DNA of 64,000 bases from a virus. Of the stretch, positions 11,765-44,870 are shown piece by piece (the first letter of the stretch is position 1; every line of letters starts with the position of its first letter). The stretch lies in the IMG/VR virus record IMGVR_UViG_3300047157_000171, one strand, 5' to 3'. Under the pieces are notes generated by a model. The model ran no database searches. It had not been told where the DNA came from and was given only the letters and a program-made list of their open reading frames with translations. Both the position numbers and the translations under genes were made by a program.

Positions 11765-13216
11765 ATGAATTTTGAAAAATTAATCAGAGAAATGCTTTTA
11801 GAAGATGCTCGTTTAGAGCACCTATTAAAAACACATGCTCACAAAGATATAGTAAAGGTTAATAAGGAGACAGGAAAGAGAAAGGTTAAGAAGGCTCCTC
11901 TTACTTCAGACCAAATGATGATTATGGTTGGTAACGACCCTACATCAAGAATTGATGGTTTAGATTTAACACAACTACACGATGACGAAACATTGAAGAA
12001 TATTTCTCCTGATTCTGTTAAGAAAACAGGTGAATACACTCAATGGATGGTCAAACAATATAAAATGTTACCACAGATGACTGAGATTCCTTATGGTGAA
12101 TCAGGATACTCTGATGAGTTATCAGAAAAACAAAGATTATTTTTCGAAGATTTATATAAGACTAAAGAGGATTTAATAAAGTTCCATAGATTTAAAACTA
12201 CGGATAAGATTGAAGAGGCCGATATTAACAAGTACTCAATTAAAGAGTTGGAAGATATTGTGGCACCATTATCATTAGAGATGGCGACAAGTACTAAGGC
12301 TGAGAGAAAATCGTCTATGTTACACCCAGGTGCTGAATTTATGGTAGAAACCGATAAGTGGTATGTGGTTAAAATACATCGTAATGATGAATTAGGAAAA
12401 GAAGCTGCCGTGTTCTATGGAGGTTCACAAAAACGTCCTTCTGAGGGGGAAACTAATTGGTGTACATCTGCTCCTGGTATGAATTATTATTTCACTTACT
12501 TAAAAACAGGTCCTTACTACGTTTTCTTAGATAAAACAGACACAAAGACAGGTAATGTATCGGGATTACCGACTCATAGATACCAATTCCATTTTGAGTC
12601 TAATCAGTTTATGGATGTTAATGATAGACAGATTGACTTAGTTAAGTTCTTTAATGATAGTCCTGATTTAAAAGAAGAGTTTAAATCGGTTATTACCTCA
12701 CACTTCAGTAAATCAAATAAAGGTGGTACTAAGTCAAAAACAGTTGAGGTAAATTACCCTTCTGATGGTATATCTAAATTAATTGGGTTATACGGTTTTG
12801 AGGATTTCTTCAACGGATTACCATCTGATTTAGAGAGTTTTGAATTTGAGTACTCAAACTCAGGATATGGTAGTCAAAAAGATATTGAACCACCTAAATT
12901 AGCGGTACCTGATAGTATTGGTAGGTTTAATCAGTTAAAGGTTTTATTCTTCGATAACTGTATCATTTCAATACCTGAGAGTATTTCCAAAGTACCTTTA
13001 AATATTTTATCAATACCAAACAACAAAGGTGTTAAGTTACCTGACTCGTTGGCTGATATGATAAGTAATGGAACCTTAAATATTTTAGGGTTGTCAGGTA
13101 CTGGGTATACAATGGAAACTTTACCACCAAAAATTGCTAAAGCGATTAACGATAGAAACAATGAACAGGATGAGAATCCAAGTGAAGATACTGCGTTCTT
13201 AGTGATATTAGATTAG
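11765..13216 (+). CDS. WCT-motif protein with C-terminal leucine-rich repeats
   Basis: DINKY..WYVVKI..FYGG..ETNWCTSAPG..YF..Y..RYQFHF core; C-terminal PDSIGRFNQLKVLFFDNC-IISIPESI..LNILSIPNN..LPDSL repeats. Confidence 0.7.
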   Translation: MNFEKLIREMLLEDARLEHLLKTHAHKDIVKVNKETGKRKVKKAPLTSDQMMIMVGNDPTSRIDGLDLTQLHDDETLKNISPDSVKKTGEYTQWMVKQYKMLPQMTEIPYGESGYSDELSEKQRLFFEDLYKTKEDLIKFHRFKTTDKIEEADINKYSIKELEDIVAPLSLEMATSTKAERKSSMLHPGAEFMVETDKWYVVKIHRNDELGKEAAVFYGGSQKRPSEGETNWCTSAPGMNYYFTYLKTGPYYVFLDKTDTKTGNVSGLPTHRYQFHFESNQFMDVNDRQIDLVKFFNDSPDLKEEFKSVITSHFSKSNKGGTKSKTVEVNYPSDGISKLIGLYGFEDFFNGLPSDLESFEFEYSNSGYGSQKDIEPPKLAVPDSIGRFNQLKVLFFDNCIISIPESISKVPLNILSIPNNKGVKLPDSLADMISNGTLNILGLSGTGYTMETLPPKIAKAINDRNNEQDENPSEDTAFLVILD

Positions 13217-13538: not shown

Positions 13539-14945
13539 ATGAAAAACAGGTTAACTTTAGTAACGGTTGCGACTCATAAGACGCATGAGTTAGATAGGTT
13601 TATTGAGTCCGCTAATTATCACGGATATGACTATGTTATATTAGGATTAGGGATGGAATGGACCGGTGGTGTTGCCGATAATGGTCGGTTAGTATTCCCC
13701 GGTGGAGGAATGAAAGTGAATCTTCTAAAAGATTATTTATCCACATATGTGGGGTCGAATAGTGATGTTATACTTTTTACAGATTCTTACGATGTTGTAT
13801 TCAACGAAAAACCCGATGAGTTATTAAGTAGATGGAACGGTAATGTATTATTTACTGCGGAAAAAACTTGTTGGCCTGACAGGGATTTGGAAGAAGAATA
13901 TCCAAACTCACCTTATGGTTATAAATATTTAAATAGTGGTGGTTTTATTGCTACAGTTGGTGACCTAATTAATCTAACGGAGACTAAGTGTATGGACCAC
14001 GACGATGACCAACTATATTACACACTAAAGTTTTTAAATGGTGATAAGATTAATTTGGATTATAATTTAGATATATTTCAAACTCTTAATCAGTCTATTG
14101 ACGATGTTGAAATACATAATGGTAGAGTATATAATAAAGTGACTAAAACGTATCCTATTGTTATTCACGCTAATGGAGGTGTTGGTCCAAGAACTTATTT
14201 AAACAAATTATATAACGATATGAGACAACCAGACCCTAAGTTAAAACAGTTAAATGGTGATGAAAGAGTGTGTTTACAAATGTTATTTGATAAGAAACAT
14301 ACGAATCCATCAATTATGGTTGAAAGTCTTTCTTACTTAACCTATGATAAAAGATTGATTGATTTATCGTTTTATAATAATGACAAAGAAAATCAATGGG
14401 CGATTGAGAACTACATTAAAAATAATGGAGATAAATACAACTCAATCACACAGGTTTATGATGAAAGTAAAGGGGTTTATGAGTTAAGAGAAATGTCGTT
14501 TAAGGAGTCTACAGGATATGATGGTGATTATGTATTACATAACGATTCATCATTTATTATAAAAAACAAGGATACAATTCAGTTATTAATGTCTGAGGGT
14601 AAGGATATAATCTCACCGATGATTAATACTGAACAAACGTTTAACTCTAATTTTTGGGGTGGTGTTTCAGACGATGGGTATTATTTAGAAAGTTATGACT
14701 ATCACGATATTAGAACGTACAATAAAAAAGGAACTTTTGTTGTTCCATTTATTAGTGGTGTGATAATGTTCAGTAAAGAAATCTTAAAGACTGATTTATT
14801 TTCAACTATGTTTAGTGATTTAGATAAAGAGATACTAAATTACTACAATGAGGACCATATGGTTGTGTTAGCTAATACTATCAGAGATAAGAATCTGTTT
14901 ATGTATATAACCAATAAAAGATATTACGGAAAATTCTTTAATTAA
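13539..14945 (+). CDS. PLOD/LH3-like protein: collagen glycosyltransferase domain + accessory domain, no hydroxylase domain
   Basis: GT motifs LVTVAT, LGLGMEWTGG, GGGMKV, LFTDSYDV, AEKTCWP, YLNSGGFI, DDDQLYYT, IFQTLN, IHANG; accessory motifs IISPM, SNFWGG, DGYY..SYDY, VPFISG, FMYITN..YG. Confidence 0.85.
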   Translation: MKNRLTLVTVATHKTHELDRFIESANYHGYDYVILGLGMEWTGGVADNGRLVFPGGGMKVNLLKDYLSTYVGSNSDVILFTDSYDVVFNEKPDELLSRWNGNVLFTAEKTCWPDRDLEEEYPNSPYGYKYLNSGGFIATVGDLINLTETKCMDHDDDQLYYTLKFLNGDKINLDYNLDIFQTLNQSIDDVEIHNGRVYNKVTKTYPIVIHANGGVGPRTYLNKLYNDMRQPDPKLKQLNGDERVCLQMLFDKKHTNPSIMVESLSYLTYDKRLIDLSFYNNDKENQWAIENYIKNNGDKYNSITQVYDESKGVYELREMSFKESTGYDGDYVLHNDSSFIIKNKDTIQLLMSEGKDIISPMINTEQTFNSNFWGGVSDDGYYLESYDYHDIRTYNKKGTFVVPFISGVIMFSKEILKTDLFSTMFSDLDKEILNYYNEDHMVVLANTIRDKNLFMYITNKRYYGKFFN

Positions 14946-15006: not shown

Positions 15007-15816
15007 ATGGCAGACTTATTAAAATATCACAAATCGTTACCTTTAACAGAACAAGAAATCTTAGACAGAGCACCATCTGTTTTCGCAACAGAGGCTTCAG
15101 GTCACGTTTCAGAAAAATATACGTTTATTCCAACAACTCAAGTTATTAAGGACATGGAGGAGTTAGGGTGGAAAGTATATTCGGCAGAACAAAGAACTGC
15201 GAGAACTAAGGTAAGAAATACACATACGAAACACTTACTACGTTTTCGTAACGACAAAATTACCGAGGTGTTAGACTGTATCCCTGAGATTACACTAACC
15301 AATTCACACGATGGTCGAAACGCATTTCAATTCTATGTTGGTCTATACAGACCTGATGTTCAAAGTTCTTTCGTAATTCGTCATGAAACTCTAAATGGTT
15401 TACGTATCAAACACCAGTGGTACACATTAAATGAGGTAAGAGAGGTAACACAAAAGGTTATCAATCACTTACCAACCTTAATCGAACAAGTACAGTTACT
15501 TAACAATACCAATATTGGTAAGACAGAACAAAGAGAATACGCAATGAGAGCCATGATGACACGTTGGGGAAAAGATTACCCTTCAATCCTACACAAAGTG
15601 GTTATGAACCCAATTAAAGGTGAAACAGTAACATTGTGGGATGCTTTCAACAACATACAAAACCATATATTAAACGGTGGTATTACTTACACATTAGCAT
15701 CTAAACGACAACAAACTGTGAGAGCGATTACAAATGTCGACTTAAAAATTAAAATCAACGAAGAGTTGTGGGAAGTGACCCAAGGGTATGTCAAACTAAA
15801 ACAAAAAGTATATTAA
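15007..15816 (+). CDS. DUF932/DUF945 family protein
   Basis: APSVFA..VSEKYTFIPT, TKHLLRFR, EITLTNSHDG, LWDAFNNIQNH..GG. Confidence 0.8.
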   Translation: MADLLKYHKSLPLTEQEILDRAPSVFATEASGHVSEKYTFIPTTQVIKDMEELGWKVYSAEQRTARTKVRNTHTKHLLRFRNDKITEVLDCIPEITLTNSHDGRNAFQFYVGLYRPDVQSSFVIRHETLNGLRIKHQWYTLNEVREVTQKVINHLPTLIEQVQLLNNTNIGKTEQREYAMRAMMTRWGKDYPSILHKVVMNPIKGETVTLWDAFNNIQNHILNGGITYTLASKRQQTVRAITNVDLKIKINEELWEVTQGYVKLKQKVY

Positions 15817-15872: not shown

Positions 15873-17531
15873 ATGGTTGAAAATCTGTATAAGAATATTT
15901 TTGATGAGCATAGGACTACGTATCACGAAGTATCTAATGATGCGACTTTAATGCGTAATATAACTGACCATAAAACCAATGCGTCTAGAATGGATGGGTA
16001 TAGTAATAAGAAGTTATATTATTTTACCGTGTCTAAATATTCAGAAAATAAAGAAGATTTTATTGATGAATATGGTAATATGTTGTGTGACTTGGAGAAT
16101 AATCGAAGGACTGTTGTTGTTGAAAAGGAAGGGGATAAGGTTAGGTTATCGTTTTACTATTACAAGAAATTCAGGAAGGTTGGTAAGTTGTATTTTGCTA
16201 AGATGTACGACCGACATTATCTAACCTATAATTTAAAGACTAATAATTTTTATATGACAAACGTTATGAAGTCGATAGGTTATAGAAGAAGTAAACGAAT
16301 ACGTTGTAACCCAACACATAATATTAGTCGAGTGGTTGAACATATTCATGATTTTAAGTTTACTAATGATGATTCAGAATATCTTAAAGTGTTTATGAGG
16401 ACTTTAGACCCTGACACTAACTATGGTAAAGACAAGTACTTAACATTTGAAGAGGCGTTCATAAGATTCTTTGTTAGTAGAAATGGTATCAAAGGTCCAA
16501 ATCATATGACATCGTTAATATTGAGAAATTATCCAGGTAAGAAGTCCTTAAAAAAGAATGGGTATAATTTGATACATTCAATCTTAGATAATGTTGGGTT
16601 GAAAAGTAAGTACTTCATTAGTTTAATGAATAACTATAAACCTGATTTAAGTTATTTGATTCAGTACGCTAACCTATTAGGGTTAAAATATGTTAAGAGT
16701 ATTAATAAGGAGTTTTTTAAGAAAGAGAGGGCTCCGTATGAGACCTTTGTTGATTTAAAGAAAAAGTATTACGAAGATACGGAACTTTATCCGATTTACC
16801 AAAACATTACCGATTATGATAGAAAAAACATCGTTAAGGTCATCAACGATTTTACAGTTACGAGTCCTGATACGCCAATAAACAATACACGGTCTATGAA
16901 TATCACTGGTTTGATAAATGACCATATTAGGATTATGGATAACTTAAGAACGTTTGAGGAGGATATTAAATTTAGGGCTAAGACTTATTCAGAATTTGAG
17001 CAAGAACACGTTAACTATAGTGAGAAGTATTCATTATATAGAAATTCTGAGGAAATTTACTATCAATACGATGAAAAAATAATTAATAGCTTAAAGAATT
17101 CACAAAAAGGGTATGAGTACGTATTATTATCGAATGATATGGACTATATAAATGAGTCTACACATCAAAATAATTGTGTTAGAACTTATATAGATAAGTT
17201 TGATTCTATAATCATTTCTGTCAGGCTTGGGGATAAAAGAATAACGACTGAATTCACATACAAAGGGGATTGTATTCAAAAGAGAGGGTCTTATAATAGT
17301 AAAGTTGACGAATCTTTTAATGAGGGTATTATGGAGTTGGAACGTATTATGAAAACTATTTATTTGGGTGGGGGGTTAAAACAACCAACTATCAAAATAA
17401 AGAATAAACTTAACGGAGACGAAAAACACTATACAATCAAAGAGTTAAAAACTAATGGGTATAGACGTTCTAGAGGTAATGAAGGTTTTTTGGATTTTGT
17501 CGACGATGAATTAGATTTTATGTTAATATGA
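15873..17531 (+). CDS. PcfJ-domain protein
   Basis: C-terminal LL..DMDYINESTHQNNCVRTY..IISVR..RITTE; start moved from 15768 to the ATG after the terminator and a TATCTTTA element. Confidence 0.75.
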   Translation: MVENLYKNIFDEHRTTYHEVSNDATLMRNITDHKTNASRMDGYSNKKLYYFTVSKYSENKEDFIDEYGNMLCDLENNRRTVVVEKEGDKVRLSFYYYKKFRKVGKLYFAKMYDRHYLTYNLKTNNFYMTNVMKSIGYRRSKRIRCNPTHNISRVVEHIHDFKFTNDDSEYLKVFMRTLDPDTNYGKDKYLTFEEAFIRFFVSRNGIKGPNHMTSLILRNYPGKKSLKKNGYNLIHSILDNVGLKSKYFISLMNNYKPDLSYLIQYANLLGLKYVKSINKEFFKKERAPYETFVDLKKKYYEDTELYPIYQNITDYDRKNIVKVINDFTVTSPDTPINNTRSMNITGLINDHIRIMDNLRTFEEDIKFRAKTYSEFEQEHVNYSEKYSLYRNSEEIYYQYDEKIINSLKNSQKGYEYVLLSNDMDYINESTHQNNCVRTYIDKFDSIIISVRLGDKRITTEFTYKGDCIQKRGSYNSKVDESFNEGIMELERIMKTIYLGGGLKQPTIKIKNKLNGDEKHYTIKELKTNGYRRSRGNEGFLDFVDDELDFMLI

Positions 17532-18121
17532 AAAAAACAATGACAATGATTTTATGTATATGTTTTGTCACGGCATTTACATTAAGAGAACAACAACAAT
17601 ATGAGGACGTAACGATAACTACAGACATATATACGGTATTATACTCTCAAGAATATGAACAACCACTTAAGTTAGATTATATAGTACAATGTCCTGGTGA
17701 CGGGGTTAGTAGAAAAGGATTAGATTTCTACGGAGTTGATAGCGTGAAGACTTCAAACAATAATGATTATCGTAATAATGTTTGGGATAAAGGTCATTTA
17801 GCACCAGCAGCTGATTTTAATTGTAGTCGAGAGATGTTAAAGAAGACATTCTCGTATTTGAATTGTGCACTACAACATGAAGGTCTTAATAGAGGGCCGT
17901 GGAGATTCTTGGAAGAATATGAAAGAGAGTTAGCGTTAGAAAATGACACGGTTAAAGTTTCTGTGATAGTGCATTTCGATAACGATACTGTATTACCAAC
18001 AGGCGCTAAGATACCATCAGATTTTACTAAGATAATTATAGTCAATAATGACACCCTAACATACAAATTCCCAAACAAAAATGTTAGAGGTAAAAAATGG
18101 GAAGAATTTCAGGTTAAATAA
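17528..18121 (+). CDS. DNA/RNA non-specific endonuclease (NucA/EndoG family), exported
   Basis: Signal-like N-terminus; WDKGHLAPAADF, TFSYLNCALQ, LNRGPWRFLE. Confidence 0.92.
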   Translation: MKKTMTMILCICFVTAFTLREQQQYEDVTITTDIYTVLYSQEYEQPLKLDYIVQCPGDGVSRKGLDFYGVDSVKTSNNNDYRNNVWDKGHLAPAADFNCSREMLKKTFSYLNCALQHEGLNRGPWRFLEEYERELALENDTVKVSVIVHFDNDTVLPTGAKIPSDFTKIIIVNNDTLTYKFPNKNVRGKKWEEFQVK

Positions 18122-36268: not shown

Positions 36269-39088
36269 ATGGCTAAGAACATAATTATCACACCGAATTT
36301 AACAGGGACAGATAATCCAAACATAGCTATCACCAATGGAAATGAAGAGATTGTCATCGGCTTAAACGCCGGTGGCTCTCTTATCTTCCAAGACGGTGGT
36401 GGAACTACGTTATTGGAACTGGACTCTAATGGTAACGCCACAGTAAAGAACCAAAACCTTAAAACTAATCAGTTTACAGTAAACTCACAAGACGCTTTCG
36501 ACGAGTCCCTTTATGTAGGTCCATCAGGACACTTAAAAGGACAGAAAGGTATCAAAGGAAACATAGGACCCACCGGAGCTCAAGGAGCGAAAGGAGTAAT
36601 TGGGGCAAAAGGTTTGAAAGGATACATTGGTTCCGTAGGGGTGGTAGGTGCCCAAGGTGCTCAGGGTGCTCAAGGACAAGTAGGTGCAACTGCACCAAAA
36701 GGTCCAAAAGGCCCAATAGGAAATGCAGGTCCAACAGGACCCGTAGGACCAAAAGGAGGACAAGGTGCTCAAGGACCTAAAGGTTACGTAGGTAATCAAG
36801 GGAGTAAAGGAGTAACAGGACCTAAAGGTCTAAAAGGAGGAGTAGGTCCACAAGGACCACAAGGTGCTTCACCTCAAGGACCACAAGGACCGCAAGGACC
36901 TCAAGGACCACAAGGACCGCAAGGACCTAAAGGTTATAAAGGGATAAAAGGTGCGACAGGTAATGTCGGACCAACAGGACAGAAAGGTATCGCGGGTACT
37001 AAAGGTAACGAAGGACCTATAGGGGACAGAGGTATCACAGGACTTAAAGGATACAAAGGTATTACAGGACCTAAGGGTCAGACGGGTAATAAAGGACCCA
37101 AAGGTAATGCCGGTGACCAAGGACCTACCGCAGCAAAAGGTGCGTTAGGTAATAAAGGTACTAAAGGTAACAAAGGTGTCATTGGCTCGAAAGGGTATAA
37201 GGGCAATAGAGGACCACAAGGACCAAAAGGTTATGAACCTAAAGGACCTAAAGGATACCAAGGACCTAAAGGGTACAAAGGTATCAAAGGTAACAAAGGT
37301 ATTAAAGGAAACACAGGACCACAAGGACCGAGAGGTATACAAGGTGGCGGCGGTGACTTAGGACCAACAGGTGTTGCAGGTATCAACGGACCAAAAGGAC
37401 CAAGAGGTGTTCAAGGACCTGTCGGTACTCAAGGACCAAAAGGTTATAAAGGGGTCAAAGGTAATAAAGGACCACAAGGTACTAAAGGACCTCAGGGAGA
37501 CCAAGGAGGGCCAGGTGCTAAAGGTGTTATTGGACCTCAAGGTAATAAAGGTATAAAAGGTAACGCAGGACCAAAAGGTTATATTGGTTCTTCTATTAAA
37601 GGTAATAGAGGAGGACAAGGACCAACAGGTTATAAAGGTATCAAAGGTAATAAAGGTGTTAAGGGTATCAAAGGAAACTTTGGACCTCAAGGACCTACAG
37701 GACCTACAGGAAACCAAGGACCGACAGGTGCTAAAGGAACTGCTGGAGCCACAGGAACTAAAGGTAACCGAGGAGGTACTGGCGGACCGGGTGACAAAGG
37801 TGTTACAGGACCGGGAGGACCAACAGGTGGAAAAGGTATCAAAGGTAACATAGGTGGACAAGGACCAAGAGGAGGTCAAGGTGCACAAGGTTATCAAGGA
37901 GCGAGAGGTACTACAGGACTTAAAGGAAATAAAGGTATCAAAGGTTATCAAGGTGATAAAGGTCAAACAGGTGGAAAAGGTATTAAAGGTAATATCGGAC
38001 CAGGTGGACCAACAGGGCCAGGAGGTGACAGAGGACCAAACGGTGATGCAGGTGGAAAAGGTTACAGAGGTGACCAAGGACCTACAGGACAGAAAGGTTA
38101 TAAAGGAGCCCCAGGTGGAAAAGGTATCAAAGGTAACATAGGTGGTCAAGGAGCGAGAGGTCCACAAGGAGGACAAGGTTCTCAAGGAGCACGAGGTACT
38201 ACAGGACCAAAAGGACCTAAAGGTTATAAAGGTAATGCTGGTGCCAAAGGTTATCAAGGTTCTAAAGGTATCAAAGGTAATAAAGGAACTAAGGGTTATA
38301 CGGGTAATCAAGGACCACAAGGTGACAAAGGTTACGTAGGTGACCCAGGAGCTCAAGGACCCGCAGGTGGAAACAGTAGTACCAAAGGTGGTAGAGGACC
38401 ACAAGGTACTTCACCAAAAGGTTATATTGGAGGACAAGGACCACAAGGTAACAAAGGTGTCAGAGGACAACAAGGACCGGGTGGTGACTTATATCTTGTA
38501 TCAACATTCCCAGATGCTCCTGAAGGACCAACAGGACAAAGAGGACCAACAGGACCGAATGGTACATCTAAAGGACCAAAAGGATATGCAGGACCACAAG
38601 GTACTCAAGGACCGAAAGGTGTAAAAGGACCGTCATATTTTGGACCAAAAGGTAAGAGAGGACCTAAAGGTTCAGGAGGACCAAAAGGACCAAAAGGATA
38701 CGGACCATTTGGTCAGGGACCAAAAGGATATAAAGGACCAAAAGGACCTACAGGTAACTCATCTGATATGAGGTTAAAGGAAAACATCAAAGAATTAGTT
38801 GGTGGTATTGAAAAAATATCAAAACTTAGAGGTGTTAAATTTGATTGGATTAAAGAATCTGTTCATAATGTGGATGGAGTTAAAGGTGGAGATGCTGGTT
38901 TTATCGCACAAGAAGTTAACGAGGTTTTACCTGAGTTGACTAATATAATGAATCAAGAGAATGGTACAATGCAAGTCAACTATGCTAAGATGACTTCGGT
39001 ATTAATCTCAGCACTTAGAGAACAGAGGGAAATCGTTAAAGAATATACTGATAAACTTGAAATAATTAAATTAAATCGTTCGAAATAA
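36269..39088 (+). CDS. Collagen-like fibre protein 1 with C-terminal S74 intramolecular chaperone
   Basis: About 740 aa of Gly-X-Y (aa ~91-830), then SSDMRLKENI..LRGVKFDW..AGFIAQEV..LPEL..VNY. Confidence 0.92.
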   Translation: MAKNIIITPNLTGTDNPNIAITNGNEEIVIGLNAGGSLIFQDGGGTTLLELDSNGNATVKNQNLKTNQFTVNSQDAFDESLYVGPSGHLKGQKGIKGNIGPTGAQGAKGVIGAKGLKGYIGSVGVVGAQGAQGAQGQVGATAPKGPKGPIGNAGPTGPVGPKGGQGAQGPKGYVGNQGSKGVTGPKGLKGGVGPQGPQGASPQGPQGPQGPQGPQGPQGPKGYKGIKGATGNVGPTGQKGIAGTKGNEGPIGDRGITGLKGYKGITGPKGQTGNKGPKGNAGDQGPTAAKGALGNKGTKGNKGVIGSKGYKGNRGPQGPKGYEPKGPKGYQGPKGYKGIKGNKGIKGNTGPQGPRGIQGGGGDLGPTGVAGINGPKGPRGVQGPVGTQGPKGYKGVKGNKGPQGTKGPQGDQGGPGAKGVIGPQGNKGIKGNAGPKGYIGSSIKGNRGGQGPTGYKGIKGNKGVKGIKGNFGPQGPTGPTGNQGPTGAKGTAGATGTKGNRGGTGGPGDKGVTGPGGPTGGKGIKGNIGGQGPRGGQGAQGYQGARGTTGLKGNKGIKGYQGDKGQTGGKGIKGNIGPGGPTGPGGDRGPNGDAGGKGYRGDQGPTGQKGYKGAPGGKGIKGNIGGQGARGPQGGQGSQGARGTTGPKGPKGYKGNAGAKGYQGSKGIKGNKGTKGYTGNQGPQGDKGYVGDPGAQGPAGGNSSTKGGRGPQGTSPKGYIGGQGPQGNKGVRGQQGPGGDLYLVSTFPDAPEGPTGQRGPTGPNGTSKGPKGYAGPQGTQGPKGVKGPSYFGPKGKRGPKGSGGPKGPKGYGPFGQGPKGYKGPKGPTGNSSDMRLKENIKELVGGIEKISKLRGVKFDWIKESVHNVDGVKGGDAGFIAQEVNEVLPELTNIMNQENGTMQVNYAKMTSVLISALREQREIVKEYTDKLEIIKLNRSK

Positions 39089-42021
39089 TGGCACTACAAA
39101 AAGGAAACAAAGGGATACAGATTATTCCAAATAGAGTAGGTACGAATGAACCTAAAATAGAACTTTACCAAGGTTCTACTACGTATACACTAGAAGTTGA
39201 AGACAACACTAATGATGTTGTTATATTTTTAAATGGTACGGAGGTCGCTCGTATGAAATCATCAGGTGATGAGAGATTTCAAATTGTTGGAGACCTAATA
39301 ATTGACGGAGATTTAAGGGACTCAAGTGGTAACGTAATCGTAACTCAATCAGGTATTTACAACGGAACATTCCAAGGTACTACAGGTGACAGAGGACCTC
39401 AGGGACCTCAAGGTAACCAAGGGCCTAAGGGAACAAAAGGACCGAAAGGTAACTTTGGACCTACAGGTCAGAAAGGAACTAAAGGAGTTGCTGGTAATAA
39501 AGGTAATAAAGGTACTAAAGGTAATAATTCACCTAAAGGTGTTATTGGAGATAACGGACCAAGAGGAAATGACGGACCGCAAGGACCGCAAGGACCTCAA
39601 GGTGATAAGGGTATTAAAGGTAACTTAGGTGATAAAGGTTTAAAAGGTAACCGTGGATATCAAGGTGGAAACGGAGACAAAGGACCTATCGGAAACAAAG
39701 GTAACAAAGGTGCTAAAGGTATCAAAGGTAACGTTGGTAACAAAGGTATCAAAGGTATTAAAGGTAATATCGGAGGTAACGGAGATTTAGGACCAACAGG
39801 TACTCAAGGGGTTAAAGGTGTTTTAGGTGCTAAGGGTTATACCGGAGCACAAGGACCACAAGGGCCTCAGGGACCTAAAGGTTATCAACCAACAGGGCCA
39901 ATTGGGCCAAAAGGTAATAGAGGATATCAAGGGGCTATTGGTGACAAAGGTTACCAAGGTGGACAAGGTGTCTCACCAAAAGGACCAAAAGGTGGACCTG
40001 GTGACCAAGGACCAAAAGGACCTCAGGGTAATAAAGGACCGACAGGACCAAAAGGTTATAAAGGTGTCGGAGGTGGACAATCATCTTTGGGTGTAGGTGT
40101 TATTACAGGACCTACAGGACAGAAAGGTATCACAGGGCCAGTTGGACCTACAGGACCGCAAGGACCGATTGGAACACAAGGACCTCAAGGACCTAAGGGT
40201 TATAGAGGTGCTACCGGTCAGAAGGGTTATGCAATCAATGACGACCCTTCAACTCCGGGATTAACTGCTCCTAAAGGACCAAAAGGACCACAAGGTTACA
40301 TTGGTAATACAGGACCGAAAGGTGCTACCGGTGATGGTGGAGATAGAGGACCTCAGGGAAATACAGGTAATGCTGGTTCAAAAGGTCAGATAGGACCACA
40401 AGGTGCTAAAGGTTATAAAGGTAATATTGGAGGACCTGGTGATAAAGGTTATACAGGTGGAAAAGGACCTAACGCGGCTGCGGGACCAAAAGGACCTAAA
40501 GGTAATGTTGGAAACAAAGGTACAACAGGACCAGGTGGACCACAAGGACCTACAGGACCAATTGGAACTAAAGGTAATATTGGTAATAAAGGTGTTACAG
40601 GACTTAAAGGAAATAAAGGTATCAAAGGACAAAAAGGGGCATCCCCTCAGGGACCTAAGGGTTACAGAGGAGCACAAGGACCACAAGGTTCTCAAGGAGC
40701 ACGAGGTACTACAGGACCAAAAGGACCTAAAGGTTATAAAGGTAACAAAGGTGTTAAGGGTTATATAGGTACCAAAGGAAACAAGGGTGTTAAAGGATAC
40801 CAACCAGTTGGACCACAAGGACCTATAGGGACTAAAGGTATTAGAGGTGCTACGGGACCACAAGGGCCTACAGGACCACAAGGAAACCAAGGACCACAAG
40901 GTGGTCAGGGACCAAAAGGATACATAGGACCTTCATATAAAGGACCTACAGGTTATAAAGGTGTCGTATCAAGTGTCGGAGACAGAGGTGCTACGGGACC
41001 AAAAGGGCCTAAAGGTTATAAAGGTAATGCAGGACCAAAAGGATATAAGGGTATCAAAGGAAACAAAGGTGTTAAAGGATATCAACCACAAGGGCCAACA
41101 GGACAAAAAGGTTATACAGGTGCAAAAGGACAGAAAGGTATAACAGGACCAGGCGGACCTACAGGACCTACAGGTTCTAATGGTACTAAAGGTAACAGAG
41201 GTGGTTTAGGACCTCAGGGACCAAAAGGTATTAAAGGTAACAGAGGTAATACAGGACCAAAAGGACCGAAAGGAAATAAAGGTACTAAAGGTATTAAAGG
41301 ATACAAAGGTAATAAGGGTATTAAAGGTAACTTAGGTGATAAAGGTACTAAAGGTAACAGAGGTAACTTTGGACCAAACGCAGGACCAAGAGGACCACAA
41401 GGACCACAAGGACCAAGAGGATATCAAGGTAACTTTGGACCACAAGGACCAGTAGGTGCTAAAGGTGGTTCAGGTGCTGGTGGTGGTACAGGTCAAAAAG
41501 GTGGTACTTCCGCGGGTCTTAAAGGACCTAAAGGGTATGCTGGACCTATATCTTCTTTTGGAGGCTCTGGTGGACCACAAGGTGACCCAGGACCTATAGG
41601 TACTAAAGGTAATAGAGGACCAACAGGACAAAAAGGAGCATCCGGCGGTGGCGGCGGTGGTCCAACTAGTGGTGGTGGTTCATCATCACTTCTTTCAGAT
41701 AAGAGACTTAAATTAGATATTAATTTAATATCGAATCCTTTACAAAAAATCCAAGAACTGATACCTGTCGAATTTGATTGGACAGATAAAGGTTTAGAAG
41801 ATGGACTTGTACGTGGAGCCTACGGGAAACACGATATTGGTTTTGTTGCTCAAAACGCTAAAAAAGTAATTCCAAGTTCAGTTAACACTGAAGATACGGG
41901 TTACTTAACATTGTCATACTCTAGAGTTGTTCCATTAATCATTGAAGCGATTAAGGAAGAACAAAAAAACATTGATATGTTAGAGGAAGAAATAAATAAA
42001 CTTAGACTAAACAACAATTAA
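39088..42021 (+). CDS. Collagen-like fibre protein 2 with C-terminal S74 intramolecular chaperone
   Basis: About 755 aa of Gly-X-Y, then [38 protein letters not shown]. Confidence 0.92.
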
Positions 42022-42023
42022 TC

Positions 42024-44870
42024 ATGGCTAAGAATATATTAATCACACCAAATAGAACAGGAACAGAGTCTCCTGAGATATTGTTAGTAAATAACGGTAC
42101 TGTAGACTCAATCTTTACAATCGGTGAGAATCTTCCATTACTTATCGGTGAAGACGGAGCTCCGGCAGCTAGTTTTAGTTCAAACGGGTTTTTAACACCT
42201 AACGGATTTAAAATTACGGGGTCGTTAAAAGTAAGAAATGGGAGTGGAACATCCGTTACTGTATTAGATAATACGGGAACATGGACAGGTTCATTCACAG
42301 GTATAAAAGGGAATCAAGGACCGCAAGGATATAAAGGTCAAAAAGGACCACAGGGTAATACGGGTGACTTTGGACCACAAGGTGACAGAGGTTACAAAGG
42401 TGGTTTTGGAGACAAAGGTTATCAAGGTGGACCTGGTGATAAAGGATATCAAGGTAACGTAGGACCAAAAGGACCAAAAGGTGTTATTGGAGCTAAAGGT
42501 TTCAAAGGACTGAAAGGTAATTTAGGGACTCAGGGACCCGGTGGACCAATAGGTCCTCAGGGAGCCCAAGGACCTACAGGACCAAAAGGTTATATTGGTA
42601 ACCAAGGTGGTATAGGACCTCAGGGTAATGTAGGACCAACAGGTGACGTAGGATATACGGGACCAAAAGGTGTTGTAGGACCAGGTGGACCGACAGGACC
42701 GAGAGGTTATCAAGGACCACAAGGTACTTCACCAAAAGGTATCAAAGGTACAACAGGTGATAAAGGTGTAACAGGTGCTAAAGGTATCAAAGGTAACAAA
42801 GGTGTAACAGGTGGAAGAGGACCTCAGGGTCAGACTAACACAACCAAAGGACCTACAGGTTATAAAGGTGTCAGAGGTACTAAAGGACAGAAAGGTATTA
42901 TTGGTTCGACTTCACAACAAGGAGACCAAGGATATCAAGGAGGTCAAGGACCGGGTGGTGATAAAGGAACCATAGGTGCACAAGGTACTACAGGTGATAG
43001 AGGTGTTACAGGACCAAAGGGACTTAAAGGTAACGTTGGTGCTAGAGGATACCAAGGAGGCCAAGGAGGTCAAGGTGCTCAAGGTGGTAATACTAAAGGT
43101 AATAAGGGTATTACAGGACCTAAGGGTTACAAAGGTGGAAAAGGACCTGCAGTTGCTAATGGACCGAAAGGACCAATAGGTGGACCGGGTAATAAGGGTG
43201 TCTCTAATATTAGAGGAGCCCAAGGACCACAAGGACCAAAAGGTTATATCGGTATTAAAGGTGTCAAAGGTGGTATCGGAGATAAAGGTATTACAGGACC
43301 AGGTGGACCTACAGGACCACAAGGAAACCAAGGACCACAAGGTGAAAGAGGTGGTACGGGTACTTCTTATACGGGTAACGTTGGAGACAAAGGTTATAGA
43401 GGAGCACAAGGATACCAAGGACCACAAGGTTCTCAAGGACCACAAGGTGGTAACACTAAAGGGTATAAAGGTAATATTGGTTACAAAGGAATCAAAGGAC
43501 CACAAGGACCAACAGGTCAAAAAGGAGCTACAGGTAATATAGGTGGCGGTGGTGATAAAGGTTACATCGGTGTTAAAGGAAACAAAGGTGTTAAAGGTTA
43601 TCAACCACAAGGACCAGGCGGACCTACAGGACCGGGAGGACCAACAGGACAGAAAGGTATCACAGGACCAACAGGTCAAAAAGGTGGTCAAGGAAACCAA
43701 GGTGCTAAAGGTAATGTTGGGAATAAAGGACCAAAAGGTTATCAACCACAAGGACCAAAAGGTATCAAAGGTATCAAAGGAAACAAAGGTACTAAAGGTA
43801 ATAAAGGTTATAAGGGGATATCTACCGTTTCATCTTTAACTAAAGGTACTAAAGGTAATAAAGGATATAGACATTCTACAGGACCAAAAGGTTATCAACC
43901 ACAAGGACCCGTTGGAGACAAAGGTTATCAAGGTGGACCGGGTGATGGTGGACCTACAGGACCGGGAGGACCAACAGGTGGAAAAGGTATTAAAGGTAAC
44001 ATCGGTGGTCAAGGTGCTAAAGGTAATGCTGGACCTACAGGATACCAAGGAGCACAAGGAGCAAAAGGTGTTAAAGGTAATAACGTTTCTACTAAAGGAC
44101 CAAAAGGTAACGTTGGGGCAAAAGGAGCACAAGGACCTACAGGACCAAAAGGTTATACAGGGTCTCTTGGAAATGTGGGTGACTCACATAGAGGACCAAA
44201 TGGACCTACAGGACCGCAAGGACCGATTGGAACGACAGGTGCTACAGGAGATAAAGGTTACGCTGGATATACTCATTGGGTTAATTCAGGTAGTCCAGCA
44301 CCGGCAGGACCTAAAGGTTTTAAAGGAAACAAAGGTGTTAAAGGATATATAGGACCAAAGGGAATTAAAGGTAATGCTGGAGGCAAAGGTTATCCTTCGT
44401 CTATATTCGGACCAAAGGGAAATAAAGGACCTAATGGATTAGCTGCGACTCAAGGACCTATAGGTGATGCTGGAGCAAGTTCAGGAAACACTAAAGGTAA
44501 TAGAGGACCAAATGGACCACAAGGTTATAGAGGACCAAAAGGGTTTAAAGGAAATGCGGGACCAGCTTCTGATAGAAGAGCTAAGACTAATGTTGAGTTA
44601 ATTACTGATTCGTTAGAAAAAGTATCTAAGATTAGAGGTGTTGAATTCCTATGGAAATCTGATTATAAACCTAAAACTTTAGAAACACCAACGGATATTG
44701 GGGTTATTGCACAAGAGATAAAAGAAGTCTTACCTGAATTAATTATTGAAGGTAATGACGGATTCTTAAGAGTTAATTATCCACAAATCACGTCTTTATT
44801 AGTCAATGCGTTTAACGAACAAAATAGTAAGTTAAATATGATTAAGAAAGATATCGATTCGATGTTATAA
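42024..44870 (+). CDS. Collagen-like fibre protein 3 with C-terminal S74 intramolecular chaperone
   Basis: About 755 aa of Gly-X-Y, then ASDRRAKTNV..IRGVEFLW..IGVIAQEI..LPEL..VNY. Confidence 0.92.
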   Translation: MAKNILITPNRTGTESPEILLVNNGTVDSIFTIGENLPLLIGEDGAPAASFSSNGFLTPNGFKITGSLKVRNGSGTSVTVLDNTGTWTGSFTGIKGNQGPQGYKGQKGPQGNTGDFGPQGDRGYKGGFGDKGYQGGPGDKGYQGNVGPKGPKGVIGAKGFKGLKGNLGTQGPGGPIGPQGAQGPTGPKGYIGNQGGIGPQGNVGPTGDVGYTGPKGVVGPGGPTGPRGYQGPQGTSPKGIKGTTGDKGVTGAKGIKGNKGVTGGRGPQGQTNTTKGPTGYKGVRGTKGQKGIIGSTSQQGDQGYQGGQGPGGDKGTIGAQGTTGDRGVTGPKGLKGNVGARGYQGGQGGQGAQGGNTKGNKGITGPKGYKGGKGPAVANGPKGPIGGPGNKGVSNIRGAQGPQGPKGYIGIKGVKGGIGDKGITGPGGPTGPQGNQGPQGERGGTGTSYTGNVGDKGYRGAQGYQGPQGSQGPQGGNTKGYKGNIGYKGIKGPQGPTGQKGATGNIGGGGDKGYIGVKGNKGVKGYQPQGPGGPTGPGGPTGQKGITGPTGQKGGQGNQGAKGNVGNKGPKGYQPQGPKGIKGIKGNKGTKGNKGYKGISTVSSLTKGTKGNKGYRHSTGPKGYQPQGPVGDKGYQGGPGDGGPTGPGGPTGGKGIKGNIGGQGAKGNAGPTGYQGAQGAKGVKGNNVSTKGPKGNVGAKGAQGPTGPKGYTGSLGNVGDSHRGPNGPTGPQGPIGTTGATGDKGYAGYTHWVNSGSPAPAGPKGFKGNKGVKGYIGPKGIKGNAGGKGYPSSIFGPKGNKGPNGLAATQGPIGDAGASSGNTKGNRGPNGPQGYRGPKGFKGNAGPASDRRAKTNVELITDSLEKVSKIRGVEFLWKSDYKPKTLETPTDIGVIAQEIKEVLPELIIEGNDGFLRVNYPQITSLLVNAFNEQNSKLNMIKKDIDSML

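Follow-up and report, generated by a model that had tools for sequence, protein, structure and literature searches.

Hydroxylysine-linked glucose-galactose (Glc-Gal) is considered a hallmark of animal collagens. To our knowledge, mimivirus is the one viral exception. A 2022 review likewise names mimivirus as the viral exception, and describes the collagen-like proteins of prokaryotes and phages as generally neither hydroxylated nor glycosylated (PMC8968730). Mimivirus R699 is a proven collagen galactosyl-hydroxylysine (Gal-Hyl) glucosyltransferase (PMC9546862, PMC12279948). A structure paper of 2025 assigned W48 and Y85 of R699 to the holding of uridine diphosphate (UDP) and K62, N138, D162, D163, Q164, H216, E114, W118 and N218 to the donor and acceptor sugars, and mutation of the UDP and sugar residues abolished activity (PMC12279948). 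Here we describe a gene at positions 13539..14945 of a 64,000-nucleotide stretch of viral DNA (IMG/VR record IMGVR_UViG_3300047157_000171; the whole stretch analysed is called the window), which encodes a 468-amino-acid (aa) protein related to R699 and to the human lysyl hydroxylase (LH) LH3. We consider it likely that this protein works in a three-gene set for modifying collagen lysine, aimed at the Lys-rich fibres of the phage that carries it. The gene was first noticed in an annotation made from the sequence letters alone (the initial annotation), as a PLOD/LH3-type collagen glycosyltransferase.

For bacteriophages, no description of PLOD-type enzymes, of hydroxylysine or of its glycosylation was found in the full-text literature searched, subscription journals being outside its scope. 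Iyer et al. (2010) reported tandem dioxygenases in cyanophages, which were read as secondary metabolism, and predicted collagen-like proteins to be the substrates of bacterial hydroxylases (PMC2938197).

Domain organization of the 468-aa protein

The gene and its two domains are located as follows:

13539..14945, + strand: 468 aa, ATG start, intact open reading frame (ORF); putative collagen Gal-Hyl glucosyltransferase of the R699/LH3 type, with a glycosyltransferase (GT) and an accessory (AC) domain
13542..14216, + strand: GT-A catalytic domain, residues 2-226; Pfam GT_PLOD E 3.6e-64
14268..14936, + strand: AC domain, residues ~244-466; homologous to the AC domain of LH3 and the GT1 domain of COLGALT1

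The ORF was found exactly where the initial annotation had placed it. The Pfam GT_PLOD profile (PF25342) matched residues 2-226 with 216.7 bits against a cut-off of 27. When all PDB sequences were searched with phmmer, the top matches were human LH3 and mimivirus R699. LH3 was aligned at E ~1e-56 (query 4-466 to chain residues 15-492, which are LH3 residues ~38-515, the GT and accessory domains), and R699 at E 9.5e-51 (query 8-464 to chain residues 18-455 of 458). For COLGALT1, the match was between its N-terminal non-catalytic domain (residues ~102-262) and the second half only (query 312-464, E 2e-16). Judged from these alignments, the homology to GT_PLOD, LH3 and R699 is far above chance. 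An AlphaFold2 model built on 32 homologues had a mean pLDDT of 91.2, the AC region being confident too, and showed a GT-A fold and, after it, the accessory domain as a second Rossmann-like unit. In Foldseek, LH3 was matched by the model across both domains with a TMq of 0.85-0.88 over ~488 alignment columns, and R699 with a TMq of 0.80 at an identity of ~26-28%. The comparison of profiles and structures with LH3 and mimivirus L230/R699 thus gave strong matches to GT_PLOD, LH3 and R699 alike.

The initial annotation had proposed that the protein matches the first two domains of lysyl hydroxylases in order and stops where the hydroxylase domain would start, and both proposals were borne out. The LH3 alignment runs through these two domains and ends at chain residue 492 (the ORF ends at ~494), at the start of the LH domain of LH3, and a separate phage LH protein, described below, aligns to LH3 from chain residue 503. 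No LH domain is present on the 468-aa polypeptide, unlike full-length PLOD1-3, in which GT, AC and LH follow one another in one chain. All of the motifs first quoted for the GT domain (DSYD 82-85, CWP 111-113, LNSGGF 131-136, DDDQL 155-159 and HANG 210-213) and for the AC domain (SNFWG 370-374, DGYY 379-382, VPFI 402-405, FMY 454-456 and YG 463-464) are present. The AC domain has no DxD motif, like that of R699, with NDS at the DAD of LH3, and is probably non-catalytic. The PLOD-type reading therefore holds for the GT+AC homology; however, the nearest known counterpart is the stand-alone R699 and not a truncated animal PLOD.

Conservation of catalytic residues

Residues were mapped by HMMER alignments to R699 and LH3, with the roles of residues taken from PMC12279948. 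The Mn2+ ligands D82, D85 (D82-S-Y-D85) and H210 align to D112, D115 and His253 of LH3 and are invariant in 32 homologues; H210 also aligns to H216 of R699. The uridine sandwich W41/Y84 aligns to W48/Y85 of R699 and W75/Y114 of LH3. The sugar and acceptor residues K59, E108, W112, N132, D156, D157, Q158 and N212 align to K62, E114, W118, N138, D162, D163, Q164 and N218 of R699, and W145 and the poly-Asp D190/D191 of LH3 also have counterparts. In the 32-sequence alignment of phage, metagenomic and animal homologues, the catalytic columns were invariant with the exception of N132, which was at least 90% conserved. Conservation of the metal, UDP and acceptor residues extended across homologues at 33% to 99% identity. 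These results suggest that the 468-aa protein is very probably an active glycosyltransferase of the R699/LH3 type.

Hydroxylase and GT25 genes upstream of the window

Genes upstream of the window were read from metagenome contigs that are 99.7-99.99% identical to its first 10.6 kb. Two of them encode candidate partner enzymes:

L007:6761-7450, strand not stated: LH protein P0122, 229 aa, stand-alone, 12.1-12.8 kb before the window start (contig 99.7% identical)
L007:16893-17633, strand not stated: GT25 protein P0123, 246 aa, 1.9-2.7 kb before the window start

The PDB relatives of P0122 were only LH domains, those of LH3 (2e-33) and of mimivirus L230 (6e-27). P0122 keeps the His-x-Asp...His Fe2+ triad and the 2-oxoglutarate (2OG)-binding Arg in the aligned motif. 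Its gene lies ~26 kb from the GT gene, and the 21 kb of upstream sequence covered here contain one LH copy. P0123 matched Pfam GT25 at 3.6e-9, and its PDB sequence matches were confined to the COLGALT1 catalytic domain (E 1e-6). COLGALT1 has an unusual Glu-Asp-Asp (EDD) Mn2+ motif (PMC12003778), which is kept in P0123, where IIEDDF aligns to VFEDDL. For the P0123 model (pLDDT 84.3), the eight best structural matches were all COLGALT1, with a TMq of 0.73-0.74, and the GT25 protein is 60-62% conserved in relatives. The initial annotation had assumed that the hydroxylase might be encoded separately and had named a stand-alone 2OG-Fe(II) oxygenase and a GT25/COLGALT gene as the genes to look for; both were found upstream of the window, in the near-identical contigs. 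The LH and GT25 genes together with the GT+AC gene indicate that all three activities of the animal pathway are predicted to be encoded by one genome, as separate small proteins.

After COLGALT1, the next structural class matched by the P0123 model was mimivirus R655 (PDB 9crz, TMq 0.50-0.53), a possible mimiviral equivalent for the galactosyltransferase step. The relatives G008 (C1:11991-13363), G001, G003, G005, G015 and G067 carry two tandem LH paralogues, of which one is 45-48% and the other 30-35% identical to the LH of the window strain.

Lys-rich collagen fibres as proposed substrates

The proposed substrates are encoded by three genes in the window:

36269..39088, + strand: collagen-like fibre protein 1, 939 aa; 222 Gly-X-Y (GXY) triplets, Lys at Y in 81; C-terminal Peptidase_S74
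39088..42021, + strand: collagen-like fibre protein 2, 977 aa; 230 GXY triplets, Lys at Y in 88; C-terminal Peptidase_S74
42024..44870, + strand: collagen-like fibre protein 3, 948 aa; 213 GXY triplets, Lys at Y in 72; C-terminal Peptidase_S74

Each of the three proteins matches Pfam Collagen and a C-terminal Peptidase_S74 chaperone. When GXY triplets were counted in runs of six or more, Lys occupied the Y position in 241/665 triplets, or 34-38% per gene, in agreement with the Lys-rich Y position first reported for these genes.

Co-occurrence of the enzymes with collagen across viruses

Collagen above the Pfam cut-off was present in 19/26 IMG/VR records with a GT_PLOD homologue, and 17/26 had at least 19 collagen matches, with ORFs of 975-1773 aa. 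As a control, 39 IMG/VR records of at least 19 kb were picked via an arbitrary 14-mer. Collagen was found in 6/39 of them, with a maximum of 7 matches and no ORF longer than 666 aa (Fisher p = 4.5e-6 for collagen presence and 1.7e-9 for at least 19 matches). The initial annotation had raised the prospect that homologues are common in phages without collagen genes, which these counts do not bear out. The collagen-free GT_PLOD records were mostly fragments, 10-36% complete, among them G012, G013, G016 and G019; the exceptions were two complete ~55-kb genomes, whose only GT is short and distant and which lack both LH and GT25. An exhaustive profile-free homologue search returned 2325 cluster representatives at E <=1e-3 and 163 at <=1e-30, with many architectures.

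Presence and absence of the enzymes within the phage lineage

The gene upstream of the GT gene was used as a lineage marker that does not depend on the GT gene itself:

11765..13216, + strand: conserved upstream neighbour, 483 aa, weak leucine-rich repeat (LRR) match; indicates the syntenic position at which relatives either have or lack the GT gene

The marker retrieved 305 IMG/VR relatives, of which the best 80 were kept (marker identity 37-43%). Among these 80, the GT gene directly followed the marker in 15 loci and was absent in 62. Whole-record searches were carried out on 46 records, 45 of them without GT at the marker site, and found GT_PLOD in one and LH in one, both times in G067; this record (297 kb, 99% complete) has GT_PLOD, LH and GT25. 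In the near-complete genomes G082 (317 kb), G097 and G072, neither GT_PLOD nor LH was found by whole-record searches. GT and LH are present or absent together within the lineage, and LH is missing from 45 relatives without GT.

The collagens differ in step with the enzymes. In the GT/LH-bearing phages, namely the window, the clade with a 477-aa enzyme, L037/L041 and G067, Lys made up 36-51% of Y positions (38-40% in the three tandem fibres of G067); the clade with a 923-aa enzyme is excluded from this range and is considered below. In 16 GT-less loci, Lys at Y was 0-7%, and the same range was given by the GT-less relatives with collagens in the DNA fetched (18 records). G072 and G066, GT-less sisters of two GT-bearing clades, showed zero Lys at Y because Y is almost all Ser. 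The GC content of the two groups was similar (0.32 and 0.30), indicating that base composition is not the cause of the difference. The presence of the three enzymes and the tracking of GT and LH by Lys at Y in this lineage support, within the sequence evidence, the earlier proposal that the phage glycosylates its own fibres.

Very long fibres are encoded without GT or LH at L298:758-9516 (G072) and in L300 (G066), with Ser at Y in 313/314 triplets of one 1402-aa protein, and other GT-less relatives have Thr or Gln at Y. Sub-lineages thus contrast strongly in their Y-position chemistry, which may reflect another modification system. At L040:9962-10444 (= L221, IMGVR_UViG_3300050343_000258) the GT frame is only 161 aa, a pseudogene or an assembly error, and the locus still has LH and a Lys-rich collagen (48% Lys at Y).

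Proposed pathway and alternative explanations

By analogy with the animal and mimivirus pathways, from which we infer the order of the steps, the 229-aa Fe2+/2OG-dependent LH would first make 5-hydroxylysine on unfolded chains, at the Y-position Lys of Gly-X-Lys. The 246-aa GT25 protein would then add galactose to hydroxylysine. The GT+AC protein, as a Mn2+- and UDP-sugar-dependent retaining glycosyltransferase, would act last of the three and add glucose to give Glc-Gal-Hyl; it is the probable glucose-adding enzyme of the set. The C-terminal S74 chaperones would then trimerise the chains and self-cleave, in a role like that of the animal C-propeptide. The acceptor and the identity of the sugars are those that would follow from this analogy, and the glycan might serve helix stability, protease resistance or receptor binding.

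The pathway is proposed from homology, fold, catalytic residues and genomic association, and several points weigh against it. The donor specificity of the 468-aa enzyme (Glc or Gal) is not readable from its sequence. The '2K-1E' triad of R699 is conserved in kind only, with D47 for E54 and R218 for K222, and the column of R699 K438 holds D in the phage protein, with K one residue later. The GT gene is separated from the fibre genes by 22 kb and sits among non-structural genes (sigma factor, DnaJ, methyltransferase, nuclease and thioredoxin). No shared promoter linking it to the collagens was found: of the T4 late-promoter motif (TATAAATA), a shared TTATATTT motif and the Bacteroidota -7 motif, none links the GT gene to the collagen, LH or GT25 genes. 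The collagens near the 923-aa enzyme have only 1% and 11% Lys at Y. Lys at Y is also seen in the short collagens of random viral contigs, from 0 to 55% on small counts, and therefore no specificity is claimed outside the lineage comparison. On the marker tree, two independent contrasts were as predicted, one was neutral (the 923-aa clade) and none was opposite, which is not significant alone. When GT presence was tested against Lys-rich collagens in phylogenetically independent pairs, only 1-2 pairs were usable and power was too low, and the covariation is therefore given as contrasts only.

Co-regulation of the GT gene with the collagen, LH and GT25 genes was also considered and was dropped as unsupported, because no promoter motif is common to them.

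The phage collagens could also be the substrate of other chemistry, either direct glucosylation of Hyl, as by L230, or transfer from another UDP-sugar, with a different role for GT25. Domains of the GT_PLOD type are credited, in work cited in PMC9546862, with several activities (GT and GGT for LH3, Glc-Hyl for L230), the donor and acceptor specificity cannot be read from an alignment, and the sequence match of GT25 to COLGALT1 is modest at E 1e-6. On the other hand, the acceptor-sugar contacts of R699 (E114, W118 and N218) are all kept, and the genome has a COLGALT-like GT25 protein that retains the EDD motif, is well conserved in relatives and is fused to GT in many viruses. The presence of GT25 and its fusion to GT fit a two-step pathway of Gal and then Glc, and other chemistry on the collagens appears unlikely.

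A target other than collagen, such as host envelope glycans, other virion proteins or free sugars, seems less probable still. Each of the three enzymes has solved relatives only among enzymes that modify collagen, and the three are fused together and adjoin collagen fibre genes in several unrelated phage backgrounds. Moreover, LH and GT are lost jointly, and Lys is gone from the collagen Y position when they are absent. Such a target would fit the position of the GT gene among non-structural genes far from the fibres, and the relatives of GT25 include lipopolysaccharide galactosyltransferases. It would also fit the side activity of R699 on free glucose, which yields kojibiose (PMC12279948). 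The fragmentary GT_PLOD records without collagen (G012, G013, G016 and G019) could be read in the same way, but collagen-free records are merely 10-36% complete.

An inactive relic or structural pseudo-enzyme is very improbable: the AC domain of LH3 is non-catalytic and the L040/L221 relative has a truncated GT frame of 161 aa, but none of the metal, UDP and acceptor residues is lost, their conservation holds over the whole range of homologues, and the model is confident. The three-gene modification set directed at collagen lysine is the preferred reading.

Virus identity and gene neighbourhood

Gene content indicates that this marine virus is a T4-like jumbo tailed bacteriophage, not a giant virus. 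Genes for a T4 Gp23 major capsid protein (E 4e-63), a contractile sheath and a large terminase occur in the larger syntenic records; together with the genome size implied by the CheckV completeness of syntenic relatives, they point to a tailed phage of ~300 kb. A sigma-70 factor and amidases that bind peptidoglycan are encoded in the window and its flank. A search for capsids of nucleocytoplasmic large DNA viruses gave zero matches, although this is weak evidence as it was run without a positive control. That the contig comes from a giant virus of eukaryotes and merely repeats mimivirus biology has the slightest chance of all the alternatives, since the capsid, terminase and sheath genes of the relatives, the sigma factor, the amidases and, weakly, the capsid search all speak against it, even though giant-virus metagenome-assembled genomes (MAGs) contribute many IMG/VR homologues and polinton-like viruses also carry collagen+S74 fibres (PMC12220804).

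Other genes around the GT gene include the following:

621-1412, strand not stated: phage sigma-70-family factor, regions 1.2, 2 and 4
15007-15816, strand not stated: DUF932 protein (PHROG 12094), near the GT gene
17528-18121, strand not stated: non-specific DNA/RNA endonuclease, near the GT gene

A common gene order was found in 13 IMG/VR contigs, namely a D12 methyltransferase (54-59% identity), the 483-aa LRR-like protein (38-42%), GT and a 587-aa protein. The 483-aa neighbour is conserved beside the GT slot in >300 IMG/VR contigs, with or without GT, and has many invariant residues, e.g. RYQFHF and FFEDLYK. In a megablast search of the phage collection, 20 kb of the window matched nothing. 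The search for related loci also gave zero matches with the single 468-aa protein as query, and alignments were used as queries instead.

Fused enzymes in other viruses

Among related jumbo phages, the GT and AC domains occur as GT+AC (477 aa), as GT-methyltransferase-AC (692 aa) and as GT25-GT-methyltransferase-AC (923 aa). The 692-aa form was located at L037:9953-12031 and L041:2597-4684, and the 923-aa form, with an N-terminal GT25, at L044:9239-12007. In both, a methyltransferase-like insert of ~290 aa (precomputed Pfam PF13489/PF08242) lies between GT and AC. Giant-virus MAGs encode GT25-GT-AC and GT25-GT-AC-LH proteins of 700-970 aa. The four-domain GT25-GT-AC-LH proteins (~850-910 aa, in contigs L021, L025 (2492-5200), L026 and L027) unite, by domains, every step of the collagen-lysine pathway on a single chain.

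Smaller phages form a separate clade in which GT25, GT and LH are joined in that order in ~615 aa, and in most loci with a long enough flank the fused gene lies 1-2 kb from a collagen gene of 1250-1340 aa. The fused form is also present in the cultured phages S-CAM9, S-8S53, S-PRM1 and CRP-6. In the marine phages S-CAM9, S-8S53 and CRP-6 it is a protein of ~590-620 aa (PHROG 61), annotated as hypothetical or as 2OG-Fe(II) oxygenase, and its gene is 1-2 kb away from one for a collagen-like tail fibre that has Lys and Thr at Y. These three were located as follows:

L091:7365-9206, strand not stated: S-CAM9 N161109_031, fused GT25-GT_PLOD-LH, annotated 'hypothetical'
L090:6467-8236, strand not stated: roseophage CRP-6 gp58, fused GT25-GT_PLOD-LH
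L009:3317-5182, strand not stated: S-8S53 WLW37456, 621 aa, fused, annotated '2OG-Fe(II) oxygenase'

N161109_031 lies 1.5 kb after the tail fibre N161109_027 (59 GXY triplets, 22 with Lys), and gp58 lies two genes after the tail fibre gp60 (99 GXY triplets, 26 with Lys).

A GT-domain tree was built from 82 sequences, and on it the window clade (support 99) was sister (86) to the jumbo-phage clade with the 477/692-aa enzymes. The trifunctional phage enzymes formed their own clade (99), the animal PLODs formed one clade (96) and the giant-virus sequences were scattered. The phage sequences are not nested in the animal clade, indicating that, on this tree, the phage GT gene is not a recent capture from an animal; the tree is unrooted, and the direction of transfer among animals, giant viruses and phages is not readable from it.

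The initial annotation had called an animal-like collagen modification pathway in a bacteriophage unusual. The animal-type enzyme set in a phage stands, but it is not a one-off and is widespread in marine phages. The phages with these enzymes include ~300-kb T4-like jumbo phages, cyanomyoviruses (S-CAM9), ~62-kb terminally repeated phages and the 45-kb CRP-6. We lean slightly towards the view that unrelated tailed phages run a complete metazoan-type Lys hydroxylation and Glc-Gal glycosylation on their tail fibres in bacterial cells. If so, hydroxylysine Glc-Gal chemistry would extend to bacterial viruses and the bacterial cytoplasm. It would represent a novel form of virion glycosylation, one with possible effects on the stability of fibres and on host recognition among abundant marine phages. 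The diversity of viral GT_PLOD, LH and GT25 proteins, set against a single animal clade, would bear on the origin of the animal PLOD/COLGALT toolkit. On the same premise, these small enzymes, native to bacterial cells, would be candidate tools for the bacterial production of recombinant collagen that is hydroxylated and glycosylated.

Comparison with known systems

The closest build is that of mimivirus R699 (PDB 9dyt, 9dzs and 9e92), a stand-alone GT+AC protein of 458 aa compared with 468 aa. Its mutationally validated catalytic residues are all common to the phage protein, and mimivirus and the phage alike encode collagens and a lysyl hydroxylase beside the GT+AC enzyme. R699 differs in its low identity (~26-28%) and in its setting, an amoebal virus factory rather than the bacterial cytoplasm. 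Its activity was measured, whereas that of the phage enzyme is predicted from sequence. The proposed substrates of the phage are tail fibres with S74 chaperones, unlike those in the R699 setting.

The GT and AC domains of human LH3/PLOD3 (6fxk etc.) gave the best match in sequence and structure, and the Mn2+ site, the uridine sandwich, W145 and D190/D191 all correspond. In contrast to LH3, the phage protein has no fused C-terminal LH, no signal peptide and no endoplasmic reticulum context. For the animal pathway of COLGALT1/GLT25D1 and LH3 (complex 8zgc), which leads from Lys to Hyl, Gal-Hyl and Glc-Gal-Hyl, the phage has predicted counterparts of all three activities. However, its GT25 consists of one 246-aa domain and lacks the non-catalytic GT1 domain of COLGALT1, and the enzymes are separate small proteins here and other fusions in other phages.

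The trifunctional GT25-GT-LH phage proteins share with the 468-aa protein the GT_PLOD domain (30-35% identity) and the presumed pathway, and they adjoin collagen-like tail fibres. They differ in having, by domains, all three activities in one polypeptide, without an AC domain, and in their collagens, in which Thr takes ~50% and Lys ~20% of Y positions. The system described here is thus a known kind of system in a new biological setting, and is commoner in phages than a single case.

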